The notes: generated by a model from the letters alone, not told the origin. Counted from the stretch's first letter, positions 36,747-61,033 are shown. The stretch: DNA of 64,000 nucleotides from Candidatus Aquilonibacter sp. (GCA_035504945.1 DATJRH010000011.1:3448-67447), one strand, 5' to 3'. Made by a program: numbers and translations.

Positions 36747-37154
36747 TCACGCCAGCTTCTTCGCAATGTGCTCGTCGAGGATTTCCTGCACGGTCAGGGC
36801 GACGATGACTTTGTGGCTACGCTTGAAGAAGGATTCAATTTCGCGCAAGGCGTCGTCGGAATAATCAAACGACACGAAGAAACCTTTCTCGCAATCTTCG
36901 CGCATCATCATGGCTTCAAAGGAATCAATGTCGGGACGACCGACTTTGTCTTTTTGTTTCACTTGAATCGGATACCAGCGTTCTTTCAGGGCGAGTTCGC
37001 CTTCCTGTTTTTTGCGGGGCGTGGCGGCGGAACTCACGGGATAAATGCGGCCATCCACGCCCATGTCACCGACCTGGACTTTGTTCGGGATGCCGCCGAG
37101 AGCGATGACGGCCCGGTTTTCAAATTCAAATGGCGGAATGGCGTCACTTTGCAT
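36747..37154 (-). pseudogene. C-terminal Mrr-like nuclease-domain remnant of a methyltransferase-nuclease fusion (locus A)
   Basis: FEFENRAVIALGGIPNKVQVGDMGVDGRIY...WYPIQVKQKDKVGRPDIDSF aligns by eye with YQFQWWALGLVGARPVEQKKGADHGIDGKIL...IIIQVKGGKTGVKDVRDL of 57714..58574. The methyltransferase part is missing. Confidence 0.6.
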
Positions 37155-38577
37155 TTTTCTTTCCAGACGAACGTTTGCGTGGAATCCGGTAAACAATTTT
37201 TTGAGGATGTTGTGGAAGTTTCCATTTTGCCGGCTTGTCCCTCAATGCAACGACGTTTGGTTGTGACTCAAACTCCAGTGTGTTGGCAGTTCGATAAAGA
37301 CAAAAATTTTCAGCAATTCCGTTGGTTGTGGTTTCCTGCTCAACATTTGTGTTTGTGTTGCTGCCGAAAAGCTCCAAATGATTTTCCGCAACGGTCTTTC
37401 TTTTCTTCGTAACGTAATCGCCCATTGGCCGGCTGCCAAAGCGCAGTCGGTTGACGATTGCGCCAATTGCTTCATTGCTGTTATCAATTCCAATCCACCG
37501 TCGCCCTAAATTCCCGGCGGCAATCAGCGTTGTTCCCGAACCAGCAAAACAATCCAACACCAAGTCTCCCGGATTGGAGGATGCGCTGATAATTTGTTCC
37601 AGCATCTCGATGTTCTTCTCGGTTGGATAGCCCGTAATTTCGATGTTCTGGTTGTGAGCATCTTTGAAATCCAGCCAGATGTCTTGGACGGGAATCCCAT
37701 TGCTGTCGTCCAGGTAGATTTTTCGTCGGGGATTGCCGTTTGAGGACCAGAAGATTTCTCCTCTTCGATCCATTTCCTCCAGAACACTCGGCGGGAACTG
37801 CCAGTGCTTGCCGGGCGGCGGCAAAACACCGCGCCAAGGCTTCCCCGTTTCACCATTTCGGATGCCGGGCGCATGAATGGGAACTTTTTTGAATCTGCGT
37901 CCGGTTGATGCTTCCTCGTAAGTATATTCTTTTTTGGCGGTTTCTTCCGACCAGGCAATCACGGGACGATTCCAGATGTAAGTTTCTGTCTTTGAGTAAA
38001 ACAAAATATAATCGGAAATGTTTCCGTAAGTGCGGCGGGTGTAATTCTTGGTGTTGCACTTCTTTCGAGTGATAAAGTTTCTGAAATTTGCAGCGCCAAA
38101 AACTTCGTCCATCACGATCTTCATTGGAAATGCCATGTTTTCGTCAAGGTGGACATAGATTGAGCCGCGCGCCGAAAGTAATTCGCGGAGCAGAACCAAA
38201 CGTTCCCGAAGGAATTCGACAAACGCCGAGCCGGACAGCAAATCATGGTAGGCAATTTTCTGCTCGCGGGATTCAAAGACACTGTTCGTTGAATAGGGTG
38301 GATCAATATAAACGAGCGACACTTGCCCCCGAACAGCGGAATCATCCAAAAGAGTTCCGAGAATTTCCACATTGTCGCCGAAATAGAGCCTGTTTGCCCA
38401 CCCCTGCGAATGTCTTGGCGGCTGGGCGACGGTTAATTTTGCCTTCGGGCAATCGGCAATGATTTCAGAAGCCGTTCGCTTACCCTCATAATCCAAATTA
38501 AACTGACCACTTGTTCGCTGGTCGTGGCGATTTTCGACCGAGCCATTGGTTTTTGATTTTGGAATGCCGGTTGCCAT
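37144..38577 (-). CDS. DNA methyltransferase, beta class (DPPY)
   Basis: SLVYIDPPYSTNS (motif IV) and VLDCFAGSGTTLIAAGNLGRRWIGIDN (motif I). Visibly AT-richer than the flanks. Confidence 0.85.
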   Translation of the reverse strand: MATGIPKSKTNGSVENRHDQRTSGQFNLDYEGKRTASEIIADCPKAKLTVAQPPRHSQGWANRLYFGDNVEILGTLLDDSAVRGQVSLVYIDPPYSTNSVFESREQKIAYHDLLSGSAFVEFLRERLVLLRELLSARGSIYVHLDENMAFPMKIVMDEVFGAANFRNFITRKKCNTKNYTRRTYGNISDYILFYSKTETYIWNRPVIAWSEETAKKEYTYEEASTGRRFKKVPIHAPGIRNGETGKPWRGVLPPPGKHWQFPPSVLEEMDRRGEIFWSSNGNPRRKIYLDDSNGIPVQDIWLDFKDAHNQNIEITGYPTEKNIEMLEQIISASSNPGDLVLDCFAGSGTTLIAAGNLGRRWIGIDNSNEAIGAIVNRLRFGSRPMGDYVTKKRKTVAENHLELFGSNTNTNVEQETTTNGIAENFCLYRTANTLEFESQPNVVALRDKPAKWKLPQHPQKIVYRIPRKRSSGKKNAK

Positions 38578-38586
38578 GGGAGATTT

Positions 38587-39483
38587 TCAGTTTCGCAACC
38601 AATCGAGAGACAGGCGTTCTGGAATCATTCGCAAAGTTAACACCACGATTCTGCCCTTCTGACTTTGCTCAAGCCGCGCGTAATCATCCCACATGGAGCC
38701 GAGCAAAAGACCCGGACCGTCGTTTAAGAAAATCAATTTGGTTCGAAGCTTGTTGAGCTTCGTATACATGAACAACTCCTGCGCGCAGTTAAAATAACCG
38801 CCGGTGCGATCATCCTCTTGAGCGCCTCCCCGGTCAGAATCGTATCGCGCCAAACCGATTGCCAGAATCGAAGTTTTATCCTCATCGTATATGACGAAAT
38901 CCACGGGGCGGGAAAGATTCGGATAGCCGGTGAAAATATCGTGAAGCAGAATATCTTTGCCAGCGCCTTCCGGTCCTTTAACTGTCAGGGAGGGAAATTT
39001 CTCACGCAGCGTTTTGAAAAGTTTTGCGGTGAGGTCATACCCCTTTTTGCCTCGATCTTTGTATTCCCAAAGAACCGCACAAAGAGCCTCGTCTGGAATC
39101 GGGCGGGTTTTATACGCCTTTTGGACCTCTTGAACTGGCCGGAATTCTTTCCCGAAATATTCGATGATTTTTTCGCACGACGTCTTTTTTTTTAACATTT
39201 CCACCGGAGTATTGGGACTGACATATTTGCGAAAAACCCGCGCAAGTTGAATTCGCATCCAGCCTTCGGAAACGTCGCAAATCTGCCGGAACAAAGCCGC
39301 AGAAGATTCAGATGATTGGATGAATTGGCCAAATAGAATGAGAACCGGTTTATACAACTCGCAGGCTTGGGGCAAAATATCGGGGTAGAATTCGCCAGTG
39401 GCGAGCGTGATCCAATTATGCGCGTCTTTTTTGTAATCGCCGAAATTCGTTCTGATCGTTTTGTTTTTTTGGTTCAAGCGCAT
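38587..39483 (-). CDS. putative type II restriction endonuclease (possibly DpnII/MboI-like)
   Basis: 298-aa ORF 9 nt upstream of the methyltransferase on the same strand. RGKKGYDLTAKLF and PVDFVIYDEDKTSILAIGLARYDSDRGG resemble, from memory, the DpnII-family blocks (FDFVI...IE.NFY..GSK). Family assignment is unverified. Confidence 0.5.
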   Translation of the reverse strand: MRLNQKNKTIRTNFGDYKKDAHNWITLATGEFYPDILPQACELYKPVLILFGQFIQSSESSAALFRQICDVSEGWMRIQLARVFRKYVSPNTPVEMLKKKTSCEKIIEYFGKEFRPVQEVQKAYKTRPIPDEALCAVLWEYKDRGKKGYDLTAKLFKTLREKFPSLTVKGPEGAGKDILLHDIFTGYPNLSRPVDFVIYDEDKTSILAIGLARYDSDRGGAQEDDRTGGYFNCAQELFMYTKLNKLRTKLIFLNDGPGLLLGSMWDDYARLEQSQKGRIVVLTLRMIPERLSLDWLRN

Positions 39484-39489
39484 TGAGAT

Positions 39490-39852
39490 TTAACAGATTT
39501 GCCCGACCGGCACGAGAGCGTTTTGAAAATTATTTTCGCCGAAAATCTGGTCGAGCATGACTTTGACGTAGTGACTGGCGTGCCAGTCGCAGTGGTAATA
39601 AAAGCTGCCGGTCTTTTTGAGGACGCGGGCCAGTTGCACGCAGCGCGGGCGTCCCGCAGTCGCGGGATAAATCAAATCCACGCAGGCGTCGGGCAATTTG
39701 GCGAGCTGTTCCAGATTGTCGCCGCAATAAATGACGCGGGTGTCGAGGAGGCTGCTGGCGCGTAGCGGCGTTCGGGAGAGCGCCGCTGATTTCCGGCTTT
39801 TGGGCTTCACCGGCGGACTGCCGTCCGCCGCTACGTCCGATTTCTTTGCCAT
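39490..39852 (-). pseudogene. N-terminal remnant of a methyltransferase-nuclease fusion (locus A), with an internal deletion
   Basis: VIYCGDNLEQLAKLPDACVDLIY is followed directly by ...RPRCVQLARVLKKTGSFYYHCDWHASHYVKVMLDQIFGENNFQN, then an unrelated tail and a stop. The DPPF motif IV block expected after DLIY is missing. Confidence 0.6.
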
Positions 39853-39923
39853 GCGGCGAAGTTTGCGCGGGAAAACTATCGGCGTCAATTCCCGTCAAGT
39901 TAGGTATTTTCGCGCAAATAAAA

Positions 39924-39958
39924 TTGCAACTGTTGCACACGAACTTTAATTTGCGCCC
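39924..39958 (+). promoter_or_regulatory. sigma70-like promoter abutting the lolC/E start (TTGCAA-N17-TAATTT-N6-ATG)
   Basis: TTGCAA at 39924-39929, a 17-nt spacer, TAATTT at 39947-39952, 6 nt, ATG at 39959. No SD-like element fits in the gap. Confidence 0.5.
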
Positions 39959-41254
39959 ATGTCGAAACTGCCGTTTGAACTGCTGCTGGCGCTGCGCTAT
40001 TTGCGCCCCAAACGGACGTTCGTTTCCATCATCACGCTCATCTCCATCGTCGGCGTCGCGCTCGGCGTCGCCGTGCTCATCATCGTCATCAGCGTCATGA
40101 GCGGCTTCGACCACGACTTGCGCTCGAAAATTCTCGGTTTCCAATCACATTTGAGAATTTACGCCCTCGACTCGTCGGGAAGAATGGAAGCGATGGATAA
40201 TTACCGCGACGTGATGAACCTCGTGTCCTCGAACAAAAACGTCCGCGGCGTCGCGCCGTTCGTGCTCGGCCAGGTGCTGGTCGAAACCGAACCGCAGGAC
40301 ACGAACACGCAGGAATCGCTCACCGCCGCGCCGTGGTTGCGCGGCGTGGACCCGGCCCACGAAGCCGACGTCAGCATGCTGCCCCAAAGCATCACCAACG
40401 GCTCGTTCGATTTGAGCGGAGAAGGCGTGGTCATCGGCAAGGATTTCGCCGAGAACATGAATCTTTCCGTCGGCGACCACATTTCGATTTATTCGCCAGC
40501 CGATTTGAAAAAAATGAAGGAGCAGCAGGGCAAGCCCGGCGAGGAGGCCATTCTGCCCGACGACTACACCGTGACCGGAATTTTTGATGTCGGCTATTAT
40601 GATTTTGACGCCGATTTCATTTTGGTTTCGCTCGAAAACGCGCAGGACATTTACAATCTGGGCGACAGTGTTCACGGCTTGATGGTCATGCTCAACAATC
40701 CGTATCAAGCTGATGAGGTGCAGCAACAACTTATGCAAACGCTCGGACCTAATTTCGACATCACGACATGGATGGAGGACAATTCCGCAATCCTCGGCGC
40801 GCTGGTCGTCGAAAAAAACGTCATGTTTTACCTGCTCTTCTTCATCGTGCTTGTTGCCGCGCTTTGCATCTTGAGCGCGCAGATCACTTTTGTCGTTCAA
40901 AAGACGCGCGAAATCGGGATGTTAAAGGCGCTCGGCGCGACCAACCTTCAAATCTCCGGCATTTTCCTGAGCCAAAGCACCATCATCGGCGTGTTGGGCG
41001 TGCTGGCCGGTTGCGGCCTCGGCATTCTGGCCGTGGCGTATCGCAATGAATTTCTTGAATTCATGCGCCGAGCAACCGGCTGGCAGCTCTTTCCCGAATC
41101 CATTTACGGCTTCACCAAATTGCCGGCGATCATTGACGCCCACGACATCACCATCATTTGTGGATGTTCATTTGTGATTTGCATTCTTGGCGGCGTGCTG
41201 CCTGCGATTCGCGCCGGCCGGCTCAAACCCGTGGAGGCGCTGCGCCATGAGTGA
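39959..41254 (+). CDS. lipoprotein-releasing ABC transporter permease, LolC/LolE family
   Basis: MSKLPFELLLALRYLRPKR, large periplasmic domain, C-terminal FtsX-like TM bundle ending in [11 protein letters not shown]. Confidence 0.85.
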   Translation: MSKLPFELLLALRYLRPKRTFVSIITLISIVGVALGVAVLIIVISVMSGFDHDLRSKILGFQSHLRIYALDSSGRMEAMDNYRDVMNLVSSNKNVRGVAPFVLGQVLVETEPQDTNTQESLTAAPWLRGVDPAHEADVSMLPQSITNGSFDLSGEGVVIGKDFAENMNLSVGDHISIYSPADLKKMKEQQGKPGEEAILPDDYTVTGIFDVGYYDFDADFILVSLENAQDIYNLGDSVHGLMVMLNNPYQADEVQQQLMQTLGPNFDITTWMEDNSAILGALVVEKNVMFYLLFFIVLVAALCILSAQITFVVQKTREIGMLKALGATNLQISGIFLSQSTIIGVLGVLAGCGLGILAVAYRNEFLEFMRRATGWQLFPESIYGFTKLPAIIDAHDITIICGCSFVICILGGVLPAIRAGRLKPVEALRHE

Positions 41255-41921
41255 ACCGCTGCTCTCGGCCCGCAACCTCGCGAAAAGTTACGCAATGGGC
41301 AGGCGCACACTGGAGGTTCTCTGCGACGTGAATCTCGACGTCGCACGCGGGGAATTTCTCGTGCTGCGCGGCGCGTCCGGCGCGGGCAAAAGCACCCTGC
41401 TCCACCTGATTGGCGGGCTCGACTCGCCCAACGCCGGGGAGATTATTTTCGACGGCCGGGACCTCGCAAAATTTTCCGAAAGCGAACTGACCTATTTTCG
41501 CAACCGCCGCGTTGGCTTCATTTTTCAAGCCTACCACCTGTTGCCCGAACTCACGGCGCTCGAAAACATCTGCCTGCCCGCGCGCGTCGCCAGAACTTCC
41601 GCCGCGCAGGTTGAAAAACGCGGACGCGAACTGCTCGCCCGCGTCGGCCTGGCGGAACGCGCCGAGCACAAGCCGTTTGAGCTTTCCGGCGGCGAACAGC
41701 AGCGCGTCGCCGTCGCCCGCGCGCTCATCAACGAGCCGGAACTGCTGCTGGCCGACGAGCCGACCGGCAACCTCGATTCACGCACCGGCGGCGAAATTAT
41801 TGAACTCCTTAAAACACTTTCTGTCGAAAGACAGACGACGCTGGTTATTGCCACACACGATGCTAAAATCGGCGCGCAAGCGCGGCGCGTCATCGAATTG
41901 GCGGACGGGCGCATCGCTTGA
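41247..41921 (+). CDS. lolD: lipoprotein-releasing ABC transporter ATP-binding protein
   Basis: [11 protein letters not shown] (Walker A), [15 protein letters not shown] (signature), [12 protein letters not shown] (Walker B). Overlaps the permease stop. Confidence 0.85.
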
Positions 41922-41953
41922 AAAATTTTCCGCCGCGTTTAGTTTGATTTGCC

Positions 41954-42841
41954 ATGCTTGAAGATCGCGATTATATGCGCCAGCCGGTTTACCACGAACC
42001 GCGCGTCTCGTTCACCATTGCGTTGTTGATTGTCAACGCGGCGGTCTTTCTCGTCCAGCTCGTGGCCTGGCACACGCCAAATGGCGCGGACATCCAGGAC
42101 AAGTATTTCGCCTTGAGCCTCGACGGTTTGAAAAGCGGTTACATCTGGCAACTGCTTACCTTTCAATTCATGCACGCCGGTTGGATGCACATTCTTTTCA
42201 ATTCGCTCGCCATCTTCTTTTTCGGACGGCCGGTCGAAAACTTTTTCGGCCGCGGCAAATTTCTGGCGCTTTATTTTTCCAGCGGCGTCATCGGCGGCCT
42301 CGTGCAAATGCTCTTTGCGCTTTTATTTCCGTCATTCGACGGCGCGGTTGTCGGCGCGTCGGCGGGCGCGGTTGGTCTTCTCGCGGCCTTTGCCGCTCTG
42401 TATTGGGCGGAACGATTCACGCTGTTTTTTTATTTCATTCCCATTTCCATGCGTGGAAGAACCCTTTTCTGGGCCAGTCTCGCGCTGGTGGCGGCCGGCA
42501 TGTTGACTCCCTACAGCCACATCGCCAACGCCGCGCATCTGGGTGGCATCCTCACCGGATTTCTTTGCGCGCGCCTGATGCTCCACGGACGCTGGCCGCA
42601 ATGGAAACTTCCCTCGCGCCGCAGTGAGCCGCGCGAATTTGCCGCCGCCGGCAACAATAAAAAAAGTTTCTGGCGTTCGTCGGCTGCCGCCAAGCCCGAC
42701 GAAGATTTGTCTGCCGACGAATTTTTACAGCGGGAAGTGGACCCCATCCTCGACAAAATTTCCGCGCACGGCATCCAAAGCCTGACCGCCCGTGAGCGCG
42801 AAATCCTCGAAAATGCCCGTTCAAAAATGGGGAAGCGCTAG
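41954..42841 (+). CDS. rhomboid-family intramembrane serine protease
   Basis: FMHAGWMHILFN, catalytic GASAGAVGLLAAF, and AHLGGILTG histidine helix, in a six-TM-helix pattern. Confidence 0.8.
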   Translation: MLEDRDYMRQPVYHEPRVSFTIALLIVNAAVFLVQLVAWHTPNGADIQDKYFALSLDGLKSGYIWQLLTFQFMHAGWMHILFNSLAIFFFGRPVENFFGRGKFLALYFSSGVIGGLVQMLFALLFPSFDGAVVGASAGAVGLLAAFAALYWAERFTLFFYFIPISMRGRTLFWASLALVAAGMLTPYSHIANAAHLGGILTGFLCARLMLHGRWPQWKLPSRRSEPREFAAAGNNKKSFWRSSAAAKPDEDLSADEFLQREVDPILDKISAHGIQSLTAREREILENARSKMGKR

Positions 42842-42872
42842 TTCGTCGAGGGTCGAAGGAAATTCTTCCGTC

Positions 42873-42900
42873 ACTCGACTCTCGACTCCCGACCCCCGAC
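42873..42900. repeat. 4 x 7-bp tandem repeat 16 nt upstream of the purB ATG
   Basis: ACTCGAC TCTCGAC TCCCGAC CCCCGAC. Confidence 0.8.
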
Positions 42901-42916
42901 TTTCTAACCTGCCGCC

Positions 42917-44251
<1,335 letters not shown>

Positions 44252-44271
44252 GCAACCACAGACCAACACGA

Positions 44272-44787
44272 ATGAACCCTCCCCGCTGCATCGTCATTGC
44301 CGGACCGAATGGCGCGGGCAAAACGACTTTTGCGCGGGAATTCCTGCCAAAGGATGCGGGCGTTATTCATTTCGTGAACGCCGACCTCATCGCCGCCGGG
44401 CTGTCCCCGCTGCGACCGGAACTGGCCGCGCTTGCCGGGGGTCGCCTGCTGTTGACGGAACTGGATCGTCTGGCCAAAGCCAGGACAGACTTTGCGTTCG
44501 AAAGCACGTTAAGCGGGCTGGGCTATTTGGGACGATTGCAGAAATGGAAGGCCGCCGGCTATCGCATTGAAATGGTTTTCCTGCGGCTGCACTCGCCGCA
44601 ACTGGCTTTGCGGCGCATTGCCGTCCGCGTGAAACAAGGCGGGCATGATGTTCCGCGCGCCGATGTATTGCGCCGTTTTGCACGCGGCTGGCGGAATTTT
44701 GAGGCCAGCTACAAACCGCTGGCGGATGCGTGGGCGGTGTATGATAATTCCGGGGATCAACCTCAATTATTGGAGACAAAACGATGA
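44272..44787 (+). CDS. zeta-toxin-like P-loop ATPase (COG4185-type)
   Basis: IVIAGPNGAGKTTFAREFLP Walker A, and HDVPRADVLRRF typical of the family. An alternative GTG at 44248 overlaps the purB stop. Confidence 0.7.
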   Translation: MNPPRCIVIAGPNGAGKTTFAREFLPKDAGVIHFVNADLIAAGLSPLRPELAALAGGRLLLTELDRLAKARTDFAFESTLSGLGYLGRLQKWKAAGYRIEMVFLRLHSPQLALRRIAVRVKQGGHDVPRADVLRRFARGWRNFEASYKPLADAWAVYDNSGDQPQLLETKR

Positions 44788-44936
44788 AAGCAAAGCATGG
44801 CAGACAAGAAGCGTTTGCGACCACGGTAGGCCGGGCGCTCCGGCGCGCGGGCCTGGCCGCTCGCAAAACTGCCCGCGCCCACGGCACGCCGATTTATGTC
44901 TGGCGCGGGGGCAAAGTAGTGGCCCAGAAACCCTGA
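44784..44936 (+). CDS. small basic ORF (50 aa) translationally coupled to the zeta-like gene, a possible antitoxin or partner
   Basis: ATGA overlap with the upstream stop. MKAKHGRQEAFATTVGRALRRAGLAARKTARAHGTPIYVWRGGKVVAQKP. Below the track length cut-off. Confidence 0.45.
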   Translation: MKAKHGRQEAFATTVGRALRRAGLAARKTARAHGTPIYVWRGGKVVAQKP

Positions 44937-44948
44937 CCTCCTGCCGTG

Positions 44949-45044
44949 GCGAAACATTTCAAGCCGGGCGAACTGGAAAAACTCTGTTCGCTCGACTTCC
45001 ATTTCAAGGAAGTGAAGAACCGGTTCAAGAAACTGGGGCTTTGA
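44949..45044 (+). repeat. duplicated (relic) purB 3' end
   Basis: By hand alignment 83 of 96 nt match 44156-44251, including the stop codon. It encodes AKHFKPGELEKLCSLDFHFKEVKNRFKKLGL*, versus AKHFAKGELEKLCSLDFHFKEVKSRFKKLGL* in purB. Confidence 0.8.
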
Positions 45045-52480: not shown

Positions 52481-53233
52481 TTATTTGATTTCGATGCCGA
52501 CGGGACAATGGTCGCTGCCCAAAACGTCGGGCTGGATAAAAGCACGCTCGAGACGTGGCCGTAGCGCTTTTGAAATCAGGAAGTAATCAATGCGCCAGCC
52601 GACATTGCGGGAGCGCGCGCCACCCATCACGCTCCACCAACTGTAATGTCCCCCGCCCTTTTCGAATTCGCGGAAGGTGTCGAGGAAACCGGCGTTCACA
52701 AATGCCGTGAAGCCATTGCGCTCCTCAATCGTGAAGCCGTGGTTGTGAATGTTCGCGCGCGGATTGGCGAGGTCAATTTCCGTATGCGCCACGTTGAGGT
52801 CACCGCAAAAGACTACCGGCTTTTTCTTCTCCAGCTTTTTCAGGTAAGCCAGAAAATCGCGGTCCCATTTCTGGCGGTAAGTGAGCCGCGACAAATCGCG
52901 CTTGGAATTCGGCACATAAACGTTCACGAGAGAGAAATCTTCATACTCGGCGGCCAGCACGCGGCCTTCCCTGTCGTGCTCGGCGATGTCAATGTGCGGT
53001 GTAACTTTTAGCGGCCGTGTCTTCGTGAAAATCGCCGTGCCGGAATAACCCTTTTTTTCCGCGCAATTCCAATAAGTCGAATAATGCCGCGGCCAGAGCT
53101 GTTCCACGTCGTCGGGTGTGCATTTGGTTTCCTGAAGACAAAGCACATCGGGTTGCTCCGCGTCGAGAAATTCCAGAAAGCTTTTCTTCAGCACGGCGCG
53201 CAGGCCGTTGACGTTCCAGGAAATCAGTTTCAC
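52481..53233 (-). CDS. xth: exodeoxyribonuclease III
   Basis: MKLISWNVNGLRA, LCLQETK, GDLNVAH, SDHCPV. GTG start. Confidence 0.9.
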   Translation of the reverse strand: MKLISWNVNGLRAVLKKSFLEFLDAEQPDVLCLQETKCTPDDVEQLWPRHYSTYWNCAEKKGYSGTAIFTKTRPLKVTPHIDIAEHDREGRVLAAEYEDFSLVNVYVPNSKRDLSRLTYRQKWDRDFLAYLKKLEKKKPVVFCGDLNVAHTEIDLANPRANIHNHGFTIEERNGFTAFVNAGFLDTFREFEKGGGHYSWWSVMGGARSRNVGWRIDYFLISKALRPRLERAFIQPDVLGSDHCPVGIEIK

Positions 53234-53281
53234 GGCACAAGATTATAAAAACCCACAAATGAACACGAATGATTTGATTGC
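53234..53281 (-). promoter_or_regulatory. TATAAT-N8-GTG promoter of xth, preceded by decamer repeats
   Basis: Minus strand reads CATTCGTGTT CATTTGTGGG TTTT TATAAT CTTGTGCC GTG. The TATAAT corresponds to 53242-53247. Confidence 0.5.
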
Positions 53282-53316
53282 AAGGACGCAAGCGTCTAAC
53301 TTGTTGGGAATCGAAA

Positions 53317-53700
53317 ATGATTGCCAACATTGCCAGCAAACCAGCGACCGCGCCAAATTTTCGGGTGGGTGACGAGCGGCTCGTCAAACTCACGGCAAAC
53401 GCCGCGCAAAAAGTGTCGTCGCTGCTGACCAAGCAGGGCCGCCCGAACGGCGTGCTGCGTGTGTCCGTCATCGGCGGCGGTTGCTCCGGCTTGCAATACA
53501 AGATGGATTTGCAGGACGGCCCGGCGAATCGTGACATTCTTGTCGAGAGCGGCGGCGTGCGCGTGGTGGTTGATCCCAAGAGCGCGCTTTACGTCACCGG
53601 CAGCGAACTCGATTATATCGGCGCGCTCGATGGTGGCTTCAAGGTGAAAAACCCAAACGCCGCGACGACCTGTTCCTGCGGCGAAAGTTTCAGTGCGTGA
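53317..53700 (+). CDS. HesB/IscA/ErpA-family iron-sulfur cluster insertion protein
   Basis: GGGCSGLQY and C-terminal CSCGESFSA cysteine ligands. Confidence 0.85.
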   Translation: MIANIASKPATAPNFRVGDERLVKLTANAAQKVSSLLTKQGRPNGVLRVSVIGGGCSGLQYKMDLQDGPANRDILVESGGVRVVVDPKSALYVTGSELDYIGALDGGFKVKNPNAATTCSCGESFSA

Positions 53701-54302
53701 CCGATTATTTTGCCCTGCTCGATGAACCGCGTCGTCCGTGGCTCGACGCGGATTTACTCAAGCAAAAATTTCTCGCACTTTCGACGAGTCTTCATCCGGA
53801 CAAAATTCATGCCGTGGACAATTCACAAAAAACTGCGGCGGCGAAAACATTTGCGGAACTGAATGCCGCTTATAATTGTCTTGCCGAGCCGAAGCTGCGG
53901 CTGCTGCATTTGCTGGAACTCGAACTGGGCGCGAAGCCGAAGGAAATCCAGCAGATTCCGCCCGCGCTGGCCGATTTGTTCGCCGAAGTCGCGGTGAATT
54001 GCCGGAATGCCGACGCCTTTCTTGCGGAAAAAGGCCAGGCGACCTCGCCGCTGCTGCAAGTGCAATTGTTCGAGCGAGGACAGGACTGGGTTGAAAAACT
54101 AAATAGTTTGCAAAAAAAACTGAATGAGTTGCGCGGCCAATTGACCGGCGAATTAAAATCGCTCGATGAAAAATGGATGGCCGCCGGCGACGATTCGCGC
54201 GAGGAAATTTTGCGAAAGCTGGAGGAACTTTACCGGCTGTTCGGCTACTTCAACCGCTGGAACAGCCAGATTCAGGAGCGCGTCGTTCAACTCTCGCTCT
54301 GA
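53697..54302 (+). CDS. hscB: Fe-S cluster co-chaperone HscB-like (J-domain protein)
   Basis: DYFALLDEPRRPWLDADLLKQKFLALSTSLHPDK (J domain with HPD), helical C-terminal domain. GTG start overlaps the upstream stop. Confidence 0.7.
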   Translation: MTDYFALLDEPRRPWLDADLLKQKFLALSTSLHPDKIHAVDNSQKTAAAKTFAELNAAYNCLAEPKLRLLHLLELELGAKPKEIQQIPPALADLFAEVAVNCRNADAFLAEKGQATSPLLQVQLFERGQDWVEKLNSLQKKLNELRGQLTGELKSLDEKWMAAGDDSREEILRKLEELYRLFGYFNRWNSQIQERVVQLSL

Positions 54303-56539
54303 AACACGCTCACGCTCAAAGGCGGCAGATAAAATTCCGCCGAGTTTTGCTGGCTGTGGCACGGAACATTTTCCGCCGTGACGCCACCCAAATTTCCCTT
54401 GTTGCCGCCGCAATAAATCCCGGCGTCGCTGTTCAACATTTCGCGCCACTTGCCGGCGCGCGGCAGGCCAAGACGGTATTTTTCGCGCGGCACGGGTGTG
54501 AGATTCAAAATAACGGCGAGCTGACTCGTAAAATCAGAATTTTGCCGGACAAATGAGAGCACACTGTTCTCAGTGTCGTTGCAATCAATCCAAAAAAATC
54601 CGGCGTGATCGTAATCCGCCTGCCACAACGCAGGTGATTTGGTGTAAAGCCGGTTCAAATCCTCGACAAATTTTTGCAAGCCACGATGAAACGGTCCGGC
54701 GTCAAGCAGCCACCAGTCGAGTTGCGCGTTTTCGTTCCATTCGACGCTCTGGCCGAATTCGCCGCCCATAAACAGTAATTTTTTTCCGGGGAAAAGCCAT
54801 TGGTAGCCGAGCAGCGCGCGCAGGTTCGCAAATTTCTGCCAGTCGTCGCCGGGCATCCGGCCAATCAATGAACGTTTGCCGTGGACGACTTCGTCGTGCG
54901 AGAGTGGCAGAATGAAATTCTCGTGATGGTGGTAGAGCATCGCGAAGGTGAGGTCGTTCTGATGATATTTGCGGTGAACCGGTTCATGCTGGAAATAGCC
55001 GAGCGTGTCGTGCATCCAGCCCATGTTCCATTTAAACGAAAAGCCAAGCCCGCCGAGATGCGGCGGGCGTGTGACGAGCGGCCAAGCGGTGGATTCCTCG
55101 GCGATGGTCACGATGCCGGGAAATTCCGAGTGCGCGATGTGGTTAAATTTTTTTAGAAATTCAATCGCCTCGAGATTTTCGCGCCCGCCGTATTGGTTTG
55201 GAATCCACTCGCCGGGTTTGCGCGAGTAATCGAGGTAGAGCATCGAGGCGACGGCATCCACGCGCAGGCCATCAATGTGAAACCGGTCGCACCAGAACAG
55301 CGCGTTGGCGACGAGAAAATTGTTCACCTCGTTGCGGCCAAAATTGAAAATCAGCGTGCCCCAATCTTGATGTGCGCCCTTCCGTGGGTCCTCATGCTCA
55401 AACAGCGCCGTGCCGTCGAATTTGGCGAGCGCCCACTCGTCGCGCGGAAAATGCGCCGGCACCCAATCCACGATGACGCCGATGCCGGCCTCGTGCAGCG
55501 CATTGACGAGAAATTGGAAATCGTCCGGCGTGCCGAAGCGGCTGGTCGGCGCATAAAAGCCGGTAACTTGATAACCCCACGACGGATAAAAGGCGTGCTC
55601 GGCCACGGGCAGAAATTCGACATGCGTGAAACCCATCCGCTTGACGTAAAGCACGAGCGGCTCGGCAAGTTCGCGGTAGCTCCAGGATTCCGTCGCGGAT
55701 TTTTTTTGCCACGAGCCGGCGTGGACTTCATAAATGCTCATTGGCGAGCGCAGGGCGTCGCGTTCGCGACGTTTTTTCAGCCAGGCAGCATCGCTCCATT
55801 TGAATTTTTTGGTGTCCCAAACGATGGCGGCATTTTTCGGCGGGACTTCAAAGAAAAATCCGAACGGGTCGGTGTTGAGCTTGATGTTTCCGTGCGCGTC
55901 GCGGATTTCAAATTTATAATGCGCGCCCTGCCCCACGCCGGGAACAAAAATTTCCCAGACGCCGGACGCGCCGAGCAGCCGCAGGGGATGAAAACGGCCA
56001 TCCCAATTATTGAAATCGCCGACGACGCTGACGCGCTGCGCGTTCGGCGCCCAGACGGCAAAGCTCGCACCGGGAACGCCGTCAATGATCCGCAAATGCG
56101 CGCCGAGCTTGTCGTAGATTTTCCGTTCGTCGCCCTTGCCGAAGAGGAACAAATCGGACTCACCGAGCGTCGGCAGAAAAGAGAACGCATCGCGCGTGCG
56201 GCGCACACGGCCTTGATGATCGGTGATGACCAGGTCATAGGCGTAAACCTTGTTTGCGGATTTGGTGACGCCTTCAAATACATCGGTGTCGGGAATCCGC
56301 TTCAGTTCGAGTTTTGGTTTGTCTTTTTCGTGAGTGGGCTGGATTTCAACTTTGGCGGCGTCGGGAAGAAGCGCGCGGACGACGAGACCGGATTTATCGC
56401 CGAGCGGGTGCATGCCGAGCAGCGTGTGGGGTGATTGATGGATCAACTCAACCAAGCTGTGTAGTTCTTCGCGCGAAAGAATCATTGCGGCGAGGATAGC
56501 AACCACGGGCGAAAGCAGCGATATAATTTCAAATGACAT
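54287..56539 (-). CDS. glgB: 1,4-alpha-glucan branching enzyme
   Basis: FAVWAPNAQRVSVVGDFNNWDG, GIGVIVDWVPAHF, HIDGLRVDAVASMLY, AEESTAWP, LSHDEVVHGK. Start is ATG 56539 or 56485. The track extension to 56797 is rejected. Confidence 0.9.
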   Translation of the reverse strand: MSFEIISLLSPVVAILAAMILSREELHSLVELIHQSPHTLLGMHPLGDKSGLVVRALLPDAAKVEIQPTHEKDKPKLELKRIPDTDVFEGVTKSANKVYAYDLVITDHQGRVRRTRDAFSFLPTLGESDLFLFGKGDERKIYDKLGAHLRIIDGVPGASFAVWAPNAQRVSVVGDFNNWDGRFHPLRLLGASGVWEIFVPGVGQGAHYKFEIRDAHGNIKLNTDPFGFFFEVPPKNAAIVWDTKKFKWSDAAWLKKRRERDALRSPMSIYEVHAGSWQKKSATESWSYRELAEPLVLYVKRMGFTHVEFLPVAEHAFYPSWGYQVTGFYAPTSRFGTPDDFQFLVNALHEAGIGVIVDWVPAHFPRDEWALAKFDGTALFEHEDPRKGAHQDWGTLIFNFGRNEVNNFLVANALFWCDRFHIDGLRVDAVASMLYLDYSRKPGEWIPNQYGGRENLEAIEFLKKFNHIAHSEFPGIVTIAEESTAWPLVTRPPHLGGLGFSFKWNMGWMHDTLGYFQHEPVHRKYHQNDLTFAMLYHHHENFILPLSHDEVVHGKRSLIGRMPGDDWQKFANLRALLGYQWLFPGKKLLFMGGEFGQSVEWNENAQLDWWLLDAGPFHRGLQKFVEDLNRLYTKSPALWQADYDHAGFFWIDCNDTENSVLSFVRQNSDFTSQLAVILNLTPVPREKYRLGLPRAGKWREMLNSDAGIYCGGNKGNLGGVTAENVPCHSQQNSAEFYLPPLSVSVFQSES

Positions 56540-57347
56540 AATCGTGGACGCCGGCGAACGGCGCGTGGCCGTTTGAAAAATTGGTTGGATTAGCTTGGAT
56601 TGGGTCGGATTTAGTTGGACTGGGTTTGGTTTCAGCCGGTGCATCCGGTCCGCGATTGTCCATCCGCGCCCAATCGGGCATGGACAAGCCATGCTGAACT
56701 CGAACGAGCCAATCGGCCCATTTTTTGCCGTATTCGCCGCCGCCAAGGGTCTCCGCCAGCAAACTCTTTTCGTGTATCGCAAAGAACCTATCGACACGGC
56801 TTTTTATTTCTTCCTTTTCCCTACGCTTGTCCGCCTCCTCGTCCTCATCTGCCATTTGCCGGTTCCAACGCTCGCGTTTGATCAACGTTCGCACGGCACG
56901 GTGGCCGTCGCACTGCAATTGGGACAATTTCGGGAGCACTTCGTAAATAATTTTGCAGCGTTTTTCCGTATCGGTCTCCTTTTTCAAACGTGCGCTGGTC
57001 ACGCATATAAGTTCCGCCGCGATCACACTGGCAAAACGGTCGCTGATTTCCATGCCATCAGCCGCCTCGTCCAAATCTTCAGCCTGCTCGGTCAGATTGC
57101 TCACGAGAAGCCGCGTTTCCTGCTGCTGCAACCACTCCGGATAACCGCGCTGCTTCCATTCGGAAAGATTCTGTTCGGTGATGGGACGTCCCTCAAACTG
57201 CTCTTGCAATAAATGCAGCGCGTCCGGTTCGCAATTGAGCCATTTCACCAGTTCCCTGCCCGGTTCACCGTCCTCGATGCGGCGATTCAACTGGTCGCGG
57301 ATGTATTTGGGCAAGCGTCCGATTTTGCCGACGTGAGTGGTGCTCAT
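56529..57347 (-). CDS. hypothetical protein with N-terminal RLPKYIRDQLNRRIEDGE (possibly DNA-binding) and a coiled-coil, charged middle
   Basis: ATG 57347 lies 8 nt after the KTSC gene. The C-terminal ~30 aa read through a 10-bp tandem repeat and may not be genuine protein. Confidence 0.55.
   Translation of the reverse strand: MSTTHVGKIGRLPKYIRDQLNRRIEDGEPGRELVKWLNCEPDALHLLQEQFEGRPITEQNLSEWKQRGYPEWLQQQETRLLVSNLTEQAEDLDEAADGMEISDRFASVIAAELICVTSARLKKETDTEKRCKIIYEVLPKLSQLQCDGHRAVRTLIKRERWNRQMADEDEEADKRREKEEIKSRVDRFFAIHEKSLLAETLGGGEYGKKWADWLVRVQHGLSMPDWARMDNRGPDAPAETKPSPTKSDPIQANPTNFSNGHAPFAGVHDYVI
56581..56630. repeat. 5 x 10-bp tandem repeat upstream of glgB
   Basis: TTGGTTGGAT TAGCTTGGAT TGGGTCGGAT TTAGTTGGAC TGGGTTTGGT. 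Confidence 0.75.
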
Positions 57348-57354
57348 AATTTTG

Positions 57355-57546
57355 TCAATGGTAGCGACCGCGAATATGCTGGTTGTAATACGACCCCATG
57401 GACGAAGCATTCATGAATTCCCGATAGACCGTTGGCGGCACGCCGGGATGGTCGTAAATGCGGCCGGTGTGGAATTCGACGGTGAGCGTGTAGCCATCGT
57501 AGCCAACGGCGCGAATCGAACTTGAATTTACGGGCATCATGCTCAT
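57355..57546 (-). CDS. KTSC domain-containing small protein
   Basis: VNSSSIRAVGYDGYTLTVEFHTGRIYDHPGVPPTVYREFMNASSMGSYYNQHIRGRY fits the KTSC pattern. TTTAAT-N8-ATG lies upstream. Confidence 0.7.
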   Translation of the reverse strand: MSMMPVNSSSIRAVGYDGYTLTVEFHTGRIYDHPGVPPTVYREFMNASSMGSYYNQHIRGRYH

Positions 57547-57713
57547 ATTGCGCGATTAAAGCACAATTCCTCCATTTTTAATTGGCGACCATCGCGGATT
57601 ATTTCATTTCCAAATGCAAGTTGTTGCAACGGAACGAAATAAAAACGCATTATTTCGAATTCATGGGCAAAAATTCGATTGCGACCCGAGTCGGAAGATG
57701 TGTTTGGAGAGTT

Positions 57714-58574
57714 TTACAACTCCAACGCTTTTTGTTCGTGCTGTTTCCTTTTTGATTCCGGGGCTTTTTTGAAGGTTTCGTCCAAGGCGGCGACGGTGGA
57801 CGGGCGTTCGATGCCTTTGCCGTCCATCAATTCTTTCACGGTGCGGAGCTGGAGGCGCGGGTATTTCTGCCGGTTCAGCTTGTGCTCGTAGAATCCGGCG
57901 CTGGCGGCCTCGGCCTGCATCTCGCGCGTGGGTGGTTGCAGGGAAATCAGAACGCCGATGGCGGCTTGCTCGCGGTCCAGCACGCCGCGCAAATCCCGCA
58001 CGTCCTTCACGCCGGTCTTGCCGCCCTTGACCTGGATGATGATTTGCTCCGGCTTGGCCACGGTGAGGTCGTCGCGGAAAAGGATTTTGCCGTCAATACC
58101 GTGGTCCGCGCCTTTCTTCTGCTCGACGGGGCGCGCGCCGACGAGGCCGAGCGCCCACCATTGGAACTGATATTTGTCATCCTCGGCGAGTTGCGCGGCT
58201 TCGTTGGGCGTGGTGGGTTCGCCGATGATGCGGACGGTCGAAGTTCGACTTCCCATTTCGGTAGGAGTCGAGGTAACGAGACTCTGACTATTTTCGGGCC
58301 GAGAAGTTTGAGCCTCCTCACGTCGGCTCCTACTGGATTCAGAAAGAGAACCGCTCACGAATTTCAGGCGGCTGCCGTAGGCGTCTTGCAGGCGGTTTTT
58401 GATGAGGGAAATGGCCAGTTGCGTCACGTCAATGCCAATCCAGTCGCGGCCGAGTTTTTCGGCGGCGTCAATCGTCGTGCCGCAGCCGCAGAACGGGTCG
58501 AGAACCACGTCGCCGGGATTGGAACTTTGCTTGATGATGCGTTCCAAAAGCGTTCCTGTTCTTAATTGCTCCAT
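57714..58574 (-). pseudogene. C-terminal part of a methyltransferase-Mrr fusion (locus B): motif I region plus nuclease domain
   Basis: Begins at ...LLERIIKQSSNPGDVVLDPFCGCGTTIDAAEKLGRDWIGID (motif I), then GADHGIDGKILF...IIIQVKGGKTGVKDVRDLRGV (Mrr-like). It lacks motif IV, which lies in the 60522..60908 fragment. Confidence 0.65.
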
Positions 58575-59563
58575 CCGCGTAACTTTTGACCAAATTCCAA
58601 GTATTCAGGCAAAGGATAGATTTGCTTCTTTGCCGGCAATAAAATTTCATCCCGCAATGCTGCCTTGAACTCGGTTTCACCGCCATGCCAACCGATCATA
58701 CGCAACCGCAGAAATTCTTTTTCGCTGCAAATTATTGCATAATTTGGTTGAACCGTAATTAGAGCGTGGTCAAACGCGCGATGGTGGAGAGCGCAAAGAG
58801 AAAGCCCATTTTTGATTTCATCTGTCCCGCGTTCATGCTCCACAGGAACGATGTGCGCTGCGTCCAACAAATCCAACTGAACACCACAAACGCAGCAGCG
58901 ATGACTGTATGCCTTCAAAACATTTGCCCGAAAACGAGCGTCGCGAATTTTTCGATTCACAGTCTGCAAAACTTGCCGCCGCTCTTTTGGTTCGATGTCG
59001 TCAAGGTCAAAGTCCACCGCCTCTTCGCGCGAGATTCGTTCTAATGCTTTGGTTTCGAGAACTGCGGCTGACGTTTGGTGCAGTTCCGATGAGCCTAAAA
59101 CGTATGAGGTGAAGAAATCAGGGCGAAATGCAATCGCGACTTCTTGATTGTCCCGGGCCTGTGGCGCGAATCCGTTCCTGACCGCTTTTTCCAACGCCTC
59201 GCGTTTTATTTGAATTGATGGCGACCGCCCCTCCATCGAAATTTGATGTTTGGTTGCGTCGAAGCCCGCAAAAACTCTCAAAGCATCTGACCATCCCAAA
59301 AGCAGCGTTTTCCAACCTTCACGAAGTTCAATTTGGCTAACGCCAGTTACCTGAATACGAAACTCATTCGGGTCTCGCGGAAATCCACCGTGCGTCAAAT
59401 TCCAGATATAAACCAGCAACGAAACCTTTGTATCTCCTTTGAAAATGGATAACGCAAACGGATGGTCGTCGCGTGATGATAAAATCAAAACGTCCCATCC
59501 ACATGCGTGAATAGCTTCAATGACGAGATCGAGCAGTCTTGGTTTTTGTAGGATTTTTGCCAT
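58562..59563 (-). CDS. HNH-family restriction endonuclease candidate
   Basis: CCVCGVQLDLLDAAHIVPVEHERGTDEIKNGLSLCALHHRAFD (HNH_2-type motif) in the C-terminal third, with a ~200-aa N-terminal domain of unknown specificity. Adjacent to a methyltransferase. Confidence 0.7.
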   Translation of the reverse strand: MAKILQKPRLLDLVIEAIHACGWDVLILSSRDDHPFALSIFKGDTKVSLLVYIWNLTHGGFPRDPNEFRIQVTGVSQIELREGWKTLLLGWSDALRVFAGFDATKHQISMEGRSPSIQIKREALEKAVRNGFAPQARDNQEVAIAFRPDFFTSYVLGSSELHQTSAAVLETKALERISREEAVDFDLDDIEPKERRQVLQTVNRKIRDARFRANVLKAYSHRCCVCGVQLDLLDAAHIVPVEHERGTDEIKNGLSLCALHHRAFDHALITVQPNYAIICSEKEFLRLRMIGWHGGETEFKAALRDEILLPAKKQIYPLPEYLEFGQKLRGWSN

Positions 59564-60479
59564 AGGGGATAGATGCCTCCTTTAAGAGGAGTGGTTGTTC
59601 GTCTTCCTGAAATCTCATTTTTGAACCTCGGATGTAATCTTCATTGATTTCCATTGTCATCCAATACCGCGCCATGTGTTCCGCAGCCTCACCAGCCGAG
59701 CCAGAACCGCCGAAGGGATCAAGCACCATGTCGCCTTCGTCGGTGAGAAAGCGGATGAAAAATTCGGCAAATGCAACCGGAAACCGCGCCGGGTGCAATT
59801 GCAAATTGTTTTCTTTGCACCGCCGAATGTAACCGCTGTTGCTTTCGGAATTTGCCAACGCCAGAACATTGGGTGCAATAGCTCCTCCGTTGTTTGTCAG
59901 AAACGAGGTTGGGCTGATGTCGTGCTCCGATGGTCTGCGACCGGCGTTGTAAGATTTGCGATTCAGCAAATCTTGCATCGCGTCGCTGTAAGCCAACAAA
60001 ACTTTCCGATTGTCGCTCTTGGGGTTTTCTGTCTTGCTTAACCACCAAACAACGTTGACAGAATCTTTCAGCCGGACGCGGCGAACCGTAACCCACTCGG
60101 CAGGCGTAGGCAGGCGCGTTGGATTGTAGTGAAACAATTCTTGCGCCAGATGAAATCCTCCCTCGTTGCACAGTTTGATCAACAGTTCATATTGGTAAAG
60201 CGAGCGCGTCGGCGCGCCTTTGCGGTATGCACCTCCCAAATCCAAAACGAAACTTCCGTCACTTTTCAAAATTCGGTGAATTTCGTTCGCAAACGGCATG
60301 AACCATTGAACATATTCGTGGTCTTCTTTATTTCCGTAGGCTTTTTTCCGGGTGAGCGCGAATGGTGGAGAGGTTACGACCAAATTGATTGATTCATCAG
60401 GAAGTTCTTTCATCAATTCCAGCGAATCGCCCAAAAGAGCTTTCCCGTATTCGGTCTCGAAATATGGTTCGGTTTGCAT
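59517..60479 (-). CDS. DNA methyltransferase, beta class (SPPF, so N4-cytosine or N6-adenine)
   Basis: NLVVTSPPFAL (motif IV) and VLDPFGGSGSAGEAAE (motif I). 47-nt overlap with the HNH gene. Confidence 0.85.
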   Translation of the reverse strand: MQTEPYFETEYGKALLGDSLELMKELPDESINLVVTSPPFALTRKKAYGNKEDHEYVQWFMPFANEIHRILKSDGSFVLDLGGAYRKGAPTRSLYQYELLIKLCNEGGFHLAQELFHYNPTRLPTPAEWVTVRRVRLKDSVNVVWWLSKTENPKSDNRKVLLAYSDAMQDLLNRKSYNAGRRPSEHDISPTSFLTNNGGAIAPNVLALANSESNSGYIRRCKENNLQLHPARFPVAFAEFFIRFLTDEGDMVLDPFGGSGSAGEAAEHMARYWMTMEINEDYIRGSKMRFQEDEQPLLLKEASIPYGKNPTKTKTARSRH

Positions 60480-60521
60480 CAGCGATTTGATTTTACTCGC
60501 AGGGAATTGAATGGTCGAGCT

Positions 60522-60908
60522 TTAGGCGGTCGGGTCGCAGTGGAGATAAAGCGAGCCGGTGGGTTTGAGGACGCGGCGGAGTTCGACCAGGCGCGGGCAC
60601 ATCATGGCGAGGTAGGCCATCATGTCGTTGGTGCCGAGAAAGGTTTTGAACGCCTGCATGACTTCGCCGACCTTGCCGGGCTGGAGAATCAGTTCCTCAT
60701 AAACGCGCTGGCTTTCCTGATTCCACGTCCAGGTGTCCTCAAAGGCGCGAATCTGGCTGGCGGCGGCGGAGCCGTCCTTTTCCTGAAAGAAGGCGTTGTA
60801 GTTCTGGGCGGAGTTGAAGGGCGGATCGAGATAAACGAGGTCAACGGATTCATCCTTGAGGTAACGCCGGAGGATGTCGAGGTTGTCGCCGTAATAAAGC
60901 GTGCCCAT
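60522..60908 (-). pseudogene. N-terminal part of a methyltransferase-Mrr fusion (locus B)
   Basis: MGTLYYGDNLDILRRYLKDESVDLVYLDPPFNS...MCPRLVELRRVLKPTGSLYLHCDPTA, then TAA where homologues (compare 39490..39852) continue SHY.K..LD.IFG. Confidence 0.65.
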
Positions 60909-60920
60909 TTGAGAGTGGAT

Positions 60921-60969
60921 GGTTGAGGGTTGAGAGTTGAGAGTCAAGGCGGAAGGCGGAGAGCGGCGC
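60921..60969. repeat. 7 x 7-bp tandem repeat 12 nt upstream of the 60908 start
   Basis: GGTTGAG GGTTGAG AGTTGAG AGTCAAG GCGGAAG GCGGAGA GCGGCGC. Confidence 0.75.
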
Positions 60970-60998
60970 AGGGGAAGCGAGGGCTGGGAGCCAGCGGC

Positions 60999-61033
60999 TT
61001 GAAGTCCGGGCAAAACGTGACAAAATTAGAGGA
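60999..61033 (+). promoter_or_regulatory. TTGAAG-N16-CAAAAT-N7-GTG promoter abutting the start of 61034..61780
   Basis: TTGAAG at 60999-61004, CAAAAT at 61021-61026, GTG at 61034. Confidence 0.45.

Follow-up and report, generated by a model that had tools for sequence, protein, structure and literature searches.

The stretch of DNA analysed here, a 64,000-nucleotide sequence of Candidatus Aquilonibacter sp. (GCA_035504945.1 DATJRH010000011.1:3448-67447) that is called the window throughout, carries two restriction-modification (R-M) cassettes, each of which is nested in the remains of a gene for a methyltransferase fused to an Mrr-type nuclease. On balance, these two sites, termed loci A and B, are probably two of three cases in this genome, and of dozens elsewhere, in which one transferred gene family has acted as a landing pad for incoming genes. 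The hot spot is real and recurrent. The first-pass annotation of the window had proposed that a single host-gene family was hit twice, a count that proved too low because a third nested R-M unit is present in the same genome and dozens of cargo loci occur in others. Its suggestion that the disrupted genes are related and were hit non-randomly was borne out by a larger sample, in which the breakpoints are clustered rather than random, and since the middle of this family has been overwritten repeatedly in many phyla, the double hit is not a coincidence.

The host family consists of single-gene beta-class methyltransferases fused to an Mrr-type (D...QxK) nuclease, in which motif IV precedes motif I. 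An intact A-type paralogue of 528 aa, located on contig C47 of the source genome (G000, a metagenome-assembled genome, MAG, of 49 contigs), was used as the reference, and coordinates designated "ref" are counted on it, with the ATG at ref 219. This protein contains DPPF, FCGCGT and GVDG...IQVKQ; the Pfam domains N6_N4_Mtase and Mrr_cat are recognized on the window fragments and on a further copy on contig C8, and the fragments of both loci align to intact relatives. The gene is constructed of a very conserved N-block, a variable middle corresponding to the target-recognition module, and a conserved C-terminal part; the N-block retains 80-94% amino-acid identity over most of the sampled phyla and 90-97% DNA identity within the genus. 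The two hosts had been described as paralogues, and both are indeed methyltransferase-Mrr genes, but they belong to only distantly related subfamilies: their fragments match in BLASTP at 2e-8 (N) and 0.004 (C), and the intact C47 shares 38% identity over aa 43-489 with G018:C13, an intact B-type relative.

All eight open reading frames (ORFs) of the two loci are present on the minus strand as first described, including the DPPY and SPPF methylases and the opposite gene orders (R-M versus M-R), and each cassette comprises separate, adjacent genes for a methyltransferase and a predicted endonuclease, as in orthodox Type II R-M systems. At locus A, the promoter-proximal N-fragment of an A-type gene occupies 39523-39888 (minus strand; blastn, with a weak Pfam N6_N4_Mtase match). 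Its ORF spans 39490-39888, and in the alignment to intact relatives the host homology stops at 39523, which marks the left junction (ref 677, after FGENNFQ) and is preceded by GAAAATAATTTTCAA. In blastn the fragment is 96-97% identical to C47 in two blocks, the last residues being AATAATTTTCAA. The alignment to C47 also disclosed a separate 118-bp deletion inside the fragment that removes motif IV (DPPF), so it is this deletion, not the cassette, that accounts for the missing motif. The annotated loss of the methyltransferase core thus holds for both loci in the sense that the core was replaced, with the correction that motif IV of A disappeared independently.

The first cargo gene of locus A (38587-39483, minus strand) encodes a BstEII-like Type II restriction endonuclease of 298 aa, which matches the BstEII structure PDB 9ibq with an E value of 9.6e-86 and has no match in Pfam, PADLOC or NCBIfam. 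Its start codon lies 40 nt past the left junction, and free-standing homologues with 68% identity are found in G020 and G017. The second gene encodes a beta-class N6/N4 DNA methyltransferase (DPPY), the native part of which covers 37300-38577 on the minus strand; the whole ORF (37144-38577) scores 2e-46 for Pfam N6_N4_Mtase and 471 bits for PADLOC MTase_II, and its homologues align only as far as aa 402-427 of 477. Permissive local alignment located decayed host sequence at 37144-37440 (minus strand), comprising a trace of motif I and a piece of the conserved C-block with a hairpin; this stretch aligns to C47 from ref ~1161 with a score of 68, versus 38.9±6.5 for shuffled sequences, of which 0/300 scored as high. 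Judged from these alignments, the true right junction lies near 37300-37440, not at ~37150, and the last ~75-100 codons of the 477-aa methylase would therefore be read-through of host debris. The C-fragment (36747-37143, minus strand) holds the Mrr_cat nuclease domain with D...QxK (Pfam 8e-6 for the ORF 36747-37196) and shows 84% DNA identity to ref 1409-1803 of C47, its final 176 nt being 90% identical to a remnant on contig C43. The host C-block is represented once more by an older remnant, a variant with a 2-nt deletion, at 34462-34537 on the minus strand (nhmmer E 4.9e-19; blastn 86% to ref 1271-1334); it is co-oriented with locus A and situated downstream of it, past two plus-strand genes, and the same 2-nt-deleted variant recurs in G000:C43, G012 and G136.

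At locus B, the N-fragment of a B-type gene (60525-61013, minus strand; Pfam N6_N4_Mtase N-terminus in the ORF 60522-61013) retains DPPF and terminates with HCDPTA followed by TAA, and alignment to intact relatives places the left junction at 60525. Its amino-acid identity is 80% to the intact orthologue G018:C13 and 95% to G022:C24. The cargo starts with a beta-class N6/N4 methyltransferase of 320 aa (SPPF; 59517-60479, minus strand; Pfam 1e-35, PADLOC MTase_II 372 bits), the start codon of which lies 46 nt past the junction and which has free-standing homologues of 83-89% identity in G144, G041 and G051. It is followed by a restriction endonuclease with MTaX1 and HNH_2 domains (58562-59563, minus strand; Pfam 1.5e-27 and 1e-12, PADLOC HNH), so the annotated HNH type stands for locus B, and the DpnII-like assignment given to the nuclease of locus A has to be replaced by a BstEII-like one. 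The C-fragment (57714-58574, minus strand) is an intact 286-aa ORF with motif I FCGCGT and Mrr_cat (Pfam N6_N4_Mtase C-terminus 1.4e-17, Mrr_cat 1.9e-8); its start overlaps the stop of the HNH gene, and from aa 9 on it shares 67-79% identity with intact orthologues. DNA homology to relatives begins at 58503-58546, and the right junction lies at 58546-58562. The aligned positions replace the four junctions initially placed at about 37150, 39490, 58560 and 60522. The intact orthologues of the locus B gene in G018 and G021 contain 531-624 bp in place of the 1977 bp of the window.

The source genome contains three additional family members, one intact (C47), one frameshifted (C8) and one carrying the third nested R-M unit (C43). 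The last of these, at G000:C43:50699-55254, lies between the 5' and 3' remnants of an A-type gene in the order 5' remnant, XhoI-family nuclease (263 aa), N6_N4 methylase (322 aa, SPPY) and 3' remnant, beyond which 187-aa and 430-aa ORFs and then a second C-block remnant are encountered. The B-like copy on C8 is split by a frameshift in a run of ten G residues (G000:C8:72835-72844; L010 1933-1942).

The breakpoints were surveyed within the genus using a 261-nt query spanning the junction of locus A, which was run against 163 genomes and gave hits in 61. About nine hits continue through the junction, ~20 end 12-25 nt beyond it, and about two dozen end at query 134-139. Twelve loci of the second group were fetched; seven proved to be intact genes with another middle and five were broken (L078, L083, L085, L086 and L087). 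All of the 20 loci fetched because their hits ended at query 134-139, a choice by end position that introduces a selection bias, switch to unrelated DNA at ref 658-685, and 17-18 of them have an ORF on the same strand that begins 12-70 nt past the break. Two further loci in G012 display the same pattern. Downstream, many loci regain host homology at ref 1231-1262, and the others do so further on. Among 20 B-type loci, 13 are intact, two are frameshifted and three bear cargo. In G156 the left break falls 15 nt before that of locus B and the homology resumes within ~40 nt of its right junction, although the cargo starts with a vsr gene, unlike locus B; in G021 the break is 7 nt from the junction of locus B and the cargo is AbiU2 (the two loci are L176 and L042). 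In intact genes with other middles, DNA homology to C47 is lost at ref 692-702 and regained at 951-1116; these limits lie near the cargo boundaries, which means that the cargo fills the variable slot and extends 20-150 nt into each conserved block.

The pattern extends well beyond the genus. A sample of 80 loci was collected from GTDB representatives using the N-block only (aa 41-153) as bait, and it spans at least eight phyla, including Planctomycetota, Verrucomicrobiota, Acidobacteriota, Chloroflexota, Actinomycetes, Ignavibacteria, Poribacteria and others; ~45 of the 80 genes are intact. In all, the GTDB representatives alone contain more than 579 copies of the family. The 16 left breakpoints fall at aa 101, 105, 127, 131, 133, 134, 135, 135, 136, 137, 138, 138, 141, 148, 206 and 279, and the right ones at aa 349-454. 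Just two of the 16 lie past aa 160, that is, in the ~70% of the gene that is free of bait bias. Overall, the zone of left breaks is narrow, covering residues ~127-160 of 528, with dozens of copies broken there, and the replaced stretch runs from this zone to residues ~295-350 or beyond. The junction of locus B (after HCDPTA) coincides with the cross-phylum mode and that of locus A (after FGENNFQ) with the genus mode. A list of truncated family proteins ranked by score was composed mainly of partial genes at contig ends. AT-rich breathing was considered as the cause of the hot zone and rejected, as the genus junction, GAAAATAATTTT, agrees with it and the cross-phylum one, CACTGCGACTGGCAC, does not.

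At least 20 types of cargo were found between the N- and C-parts of the family without mobility genes, as is the case for minimal mobile elements. The first cargo gene lies on the host strand in ~30 of 35 loci and the cargo begins 5-96 nt past the junction; the N-fragment keeps the promoter, and its ORF hits a stop codon shortly before the cargo starts. R-M systems are the commonest cargo and make up about half of the cargo types, including BstEII-like and XhoI systems, BglII paired with an N6_N4 or an MT-A70 methylase, a fusion of a C5 methylase with BsuBI/PstI, an EcoRI-like methylase with GmrSD-HNH, a HaeII-like nuclease and two unnamed pairs. Other defence-type cargos are AbiU2, an AAA_15/21 ATPase with DUF3226 and a HerA-like ATPase, and non-defence cargos comprise ankyrin, Sel1 and LRR proteins as well as a beta-lactamase-like protein, so the phenomenon is not specific to R-M systems as the initial description implied. 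A single 2.03-kb cassette of a methylase and a nuclease (85.6% DNA identity) resides in A-type loci L053 and L063 (G041 and G018) and in B-type locus L186 (G150); its ends, ~17 nt before the ATG and at the stop codon, are identical in both subfamilies, and the host breakpoints differ. Free-standing homologues of the cassettes of A and B have housekeeping genes as neighbours in other species, and related cassettes (50% protein identity) occupy family copies of a planctomycete and a verrucomicrobium at different junctions. The family takes up only ~0.1% of a genome, yet it provides the context in a third or more of the cassette sightings, which therefore represents a large enrichment. As a side observation, the AAA_15/AAA_21 ATPase (371 aa) and the DUF3226 protein (222 aa) occur at the same junction in the planctomycete MAGs L138 (JAZDKM010000150.1) and L142 (CAYLLT010000037.1), and the two constitute a candidate defence pair.

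Domain searches of the ORFs in both islands gave no integrase, transposase or other mobility domain, in agreement with the first-pass annotation, and a repeat search at either window cassette found no flanking direct or inverted repeats and no target duplication. A transposon or insertion sequence was accordingly rejected in view of the missing mobility domains, terminal repeats and target duplication. An R-M insertion with long target duplication was discarded likewise, as no duplication was found and the host sequence between the junctions is deleted. A homing endonuclease, intron or intein does not fit either, because many cargos are devoid of a nuclease, the host frame is destroyed and the fragments are decaying. 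Crossover through homology between host and cargo methylase motifs is not supported, since the cargo methylases retain N-termini that match those of free-standing homologues from the first residue. A 13-nt match between the junction of A and the R gene, the only such match, is at chance level.

Integron cassettes were rejected on the grounds that there is no attC, no adjacent intI and only a weak association with intI, although the genus is an integron-rich lineage. An integron integrase is encoded in 79 of 163 genus genomes (cut-off E <= 1e-60), and two are present in G000 above the TIGR02249 cut-off (G000:C27:26-961 and G000:C43:820-1806), both at contig starts; the intI genes lie on contigs other than those of the cargo loci, or 50 kb away and facing in the wrong direction. 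The association amounts to 40 of 61 versus 47 of 102 genomes, uncorrected for kinship, and in the near-complete G097 a cargo locus is present and no integron integrase was found at E <= 1e-60. The density of attC-like core pairs over 208 kb of cargo loci equals that of the background (77 versus 75 per Mb), and the same scan finds such pairs between every cassette of a genuine array in G150, which lies 10 kb from a family gene that is not part of the array. The right ends of the cargos abut the last stop codon and therefore leave no room for attC. The single-strand structure of the junction regions was not significant (z -0.3 to -1.6).

The available evidence is best accommodated by the following scheme, in which a primary event would be distinguished from subsequent spread. 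The primary loading would be an illegitimate, break-associated recombination biased to the narrow zone; that it was not homologous follows from the occurrence of the same cassette in two subfamilies with different host breakpoints. Selection would then favour the survivors, both for cargo expression from the host promoter and for the inactivation of the resident methylase-nuclease. Finally, homologous recombination acting on the conserved ends would carry loaded alleles from copy to copy and from species to species and homogenize them; this would include N-block-anchored replacement, by which older C-part remnants would be stacked downstream. Several observations bear on this last step. The N-fragment of locus A is 96-97% identical to C47 but its C-fragment only 84%, the latter being partly nearer to the C43 remnant; between species that share only 65-86% identity in glgB and lolC, the N-blocks reach 90-97%; and copies from one genome pair in the N-block tree. 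One N-fragment followed by two or three co-oriented C-parts was seen in five of 15 loci, including the window and C43, and these stacked C-parts fit a replacement anchored in the N-block that shifts older remnants downstream. The first of the two explanations offered initially, namely that conserved methyltransferase motifs serve as recombination anchors, is thereby sustained insofar as the conserved N- and C-blocks act as homology arms, but not with regard to the junctions, where host and cargo methylases show no sign of homology.

A number of points weigh against this scheme. Breakpoints before aa ~100 are under-sampled by the queries, and the genus loci with the cleanest breaks were picked by the end position of their hits. 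The left breakpoints are spread across ~90 nt and the right ones across >150 nt, and the spread on the left means that there is no single recombination site. The N-block tree is poorly resolved, blurred by recombination, and contains no strongly supported branch against a single origin of the ref 673-677 junction. Moreover, at least 12 unrelated cargos in the genus share a left junction within ~5 nt and have no leader in common; such sharing is poorly explained by founder junctions with homologous spread and points to an aimed mechanism.

This last consideration leads to an undescribed, dedicated cassette-capture system, in which the end of the N-block would be an attI-like site with a promoter, the newest cassette would come first, the conserved piece of the C-block would form the other boundary, and the activity would be supplied in trans or by the host's own nuclease cutting its gene. 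Such a system is possible, though doubtful. It would agree with the clustering of left junctions for many unrelated cargos, with cargo that is co-oriented and promoterless-looking and whose stop-start spacing is typical of coupling, with the identical cassette ends in A-type and B-type hosts, and with the arrays of one N-fragment and several co-oriented C-parts. The persistence of the short C-block piece in otherwise erased remnants, its frameshifted variant being common to several loci and genomes, the small palindromes in both junction zones, and the frequency of integron integrases in the genus and in the source genome itself are likewise in its favour. The variation of the breakpoints on both sides is, however, unlike site-specific recombination, and the insignificant single-strand structure, the background density of attC-like pairs, the cargo ends without room for attC, the cargo locus of G097 and the weak intI association all speak against it. 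With a similarly tentative standing, the methyltransferase-Mrr gene may be regarded as the docking module of a cross-phylum capture system, loaded serially, for the most part with defence systems, beside an attI/Pc-like N-block; if true, the conservation of this gene across phyla would be that of a universal landing pad for the horizontal transfer of defence genes.

Selection driven by conflict, the second explanation offered at the outset, appears improbable as the main cause. It supposes that an incoming methylase turns the chromosome into a substrate for the resident Mrr-type enzyme, so that the survivors are knock-outs. Mrr and McrBC are known to be incompatible with foreign methylases (PMC2993543), the host C-domain carries an Mrr/MspJI-type D...QxK motif, R-M systems account for about half of the cargo types, and the methylase core is always lost, which renders such selection plausible for R-M cargo. 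It leaves unexplained, by contrast, the ankyrin, Sel1, LRR, beta-lactamase-like and Abi cargos, which add no methylation, as well as the retention of the closely related intact C47 in the same genome as locus A and the intact Mrr-domain ORF in locus B and its relatives; it also predicts breaks anywhere and in either orientation, not a narrow N-proximal zone with co-oriented cargo. Far less credible still is an origin by coincidence or misassembly, that is, from two unrelated insertions or from chimeras assembled across repeated methylase sequences. Although the genome is a 49-contig MAG and multi-copy N-blocks of 90-97% identity could mislead assemblers, the same architecture is observed in dozens of independent assemblies, including G097, G136 and G153 with 7-10 contigs and NCBI MAGs of other phyla, and the junction pair of locus B recurs within tens of nucleotides in G156 with other cargo. 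This recurrence in many independent and contiguous assemblies argues against an assembly artefact, and coincidence is already refuted by the survey.

The hot spot is a variation on known cassette-exchange and defence-hotspot phenomena. In the minimal mobile elements of Neisseria, the pneumococcal dpn locus and the immigration control region of E. coli, whole-gene cassettes alternate between conserved flanks; they are often R-M systems, they are unaccompanied by a mobility gene, and their exchange has been ascribed to homologous recombination in the flanks (PMC1797815, PMC3082526, PMC4471560). The present loci resemble them in having different cassettes, often R-M, between conserved flanks without a mobility gene. 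They differ in that the flanks are the halves of one mobile, multi-copy gene of many phyla at different chromosomal sites, rather than two core genes with a fixed position, and in that the same cassette is found in two subfamilies that share no flanks. Furuta, Abe and Kobayashi (2010) distinguished long target duplication, allelic substitution and substitution of target-recognition domains in Type IIG genes as classes of R-M mobility, and reported that some R-M insertions of H. pylori targeted a Type IIG R-M gene and that R-M units move without linked mobility genes (PMC2853133). In contrast with these classes, the host middle is deleted here rather than duplicated, no target duplication is found, whole operons and non-R-M genes occupy the recognition-domain slot, and the recurrence is cross-phylum. 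The movement of recognition domains between conserved gene parts (PMC3077401, PMC3467074) is paralleled by the intact members of the host family, which also show swapped middles. The likeness to integron cassettes, including the defence cassettes of sedentary chromosomal integrons (10.1101/2024.07.02.601686), lies in compact, promoterless-looking, co-oriented cargo expressed from a conserved segment ahead of it, in the many defence systems, in the array-like stacking and in the wealth of integron integrases in the genus, whereas attC at the cargo ends, an adjacent intI and a precise crossover are lacking. A full-text search of the literature gave no description of a single mobile gene whose interior acts as a landing pad across phyla.

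Homology-facilitated illegitimate recombination during natural transformation combines one homologous anchor with one illegitimate joint. Such a process would yield one N-fragment followed by stacked remnants of older C-parts, as seen here, but it does not explain why new cargo joins at the same end of the anchor.

The surroundings of the two loci are themselves variable. Locus B, together with KTSC, 293-aa and 248-aa ORFs, belongs to an island between glgB and coaE (56487-61911) that was delimited by comparison with relatives. The whole 5.4-kb stretch is absent in eight of them (G002, G001, G003, G016, G004, G013, G008 and G022), where glgB and coaE are 70-320 bp apart; G017 and G018 have a spacing of 2-4 kb, G014 and G011 one of 12-17 kb, and the region of G011 also contains debris of a B-type C-fragment. 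Between locus A and the remnant at 34462-34537, the window encodes a 552-aa Gly_rich_2 protein and a 144-aa partner (34639-36740). This pair is multi-copy and rearranged in relatives, with two or three copies in G018:C7 and an inverted one beside lolC in G018:C14. No clean empty site was found in the comparison of locus A with relatives, this neighbouring module being itself multi-copy and rearranged; at the corresponding position, G008 has an unrelated 383-aa ORF on the minus strand, by eye possibly an SppA-type peptidase.

Some further observations concern frame loss in the family and integron arrays in the genus. The G10 homopolymer of the C8 copy coincides precisely with the codons of the cargo hot zone of the other subfamilies (SIFC-GGGGGGGGGG-DFKIEIIW), and it looks like a slipped-strand phase-variation tract. 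In the family proteins P0034, P0105 and P0112, which come from other samples, the frame is lost just past motif I (FCGCGTA|) or at SPTAC|RVMAKRL; this region is that of the right junction zone and is possibly a GC-rich repeat prone to indels, GCGGTTGCGGCACGGCG. Dense clusters of RYYYAAC...GTTRRRY pairs were noted at 20-25 kb of G000:C8, 0-10 kb of C10, 10-15 kb of C25 and 0-5 kb of C16. The integron array of G150 (L203, G150:C10:98000-117500) contains, at positions 3000-5900 beside intI, six or more small ORFs on one strand, with an attC-like site behind each. Two ORFs, judged by eye from their N-termini to be transposase-like, interrupt the array, and several of its cassettes begin with a common attC-encoded peptide, LALAVPLSRFTSRVGGGSAFFVR.

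For annotation, the finding means that pipelines would call the remnants "partial methyltransferases" and would fuse cargo ORFs with host debris, as in the 477-aa methylase of locus A. The N-fragments of the family would also serve as a practical bait for compact, probably expressed cassettes, several of which are uncharacterized, and as donor, target and junctions are defined, the movement of "naked" R-M units becomes directly testable. If the landing-pad reading is true, a promoter-equipped slot common to Verrucomicrobiota, Planctomycetota, Acidobacteriota, Chloroflexota and further phyla would constitute a route of transfer that requires neither transposases nor integrases, by which defence and other accessory genes would be moved between distant bacteria.

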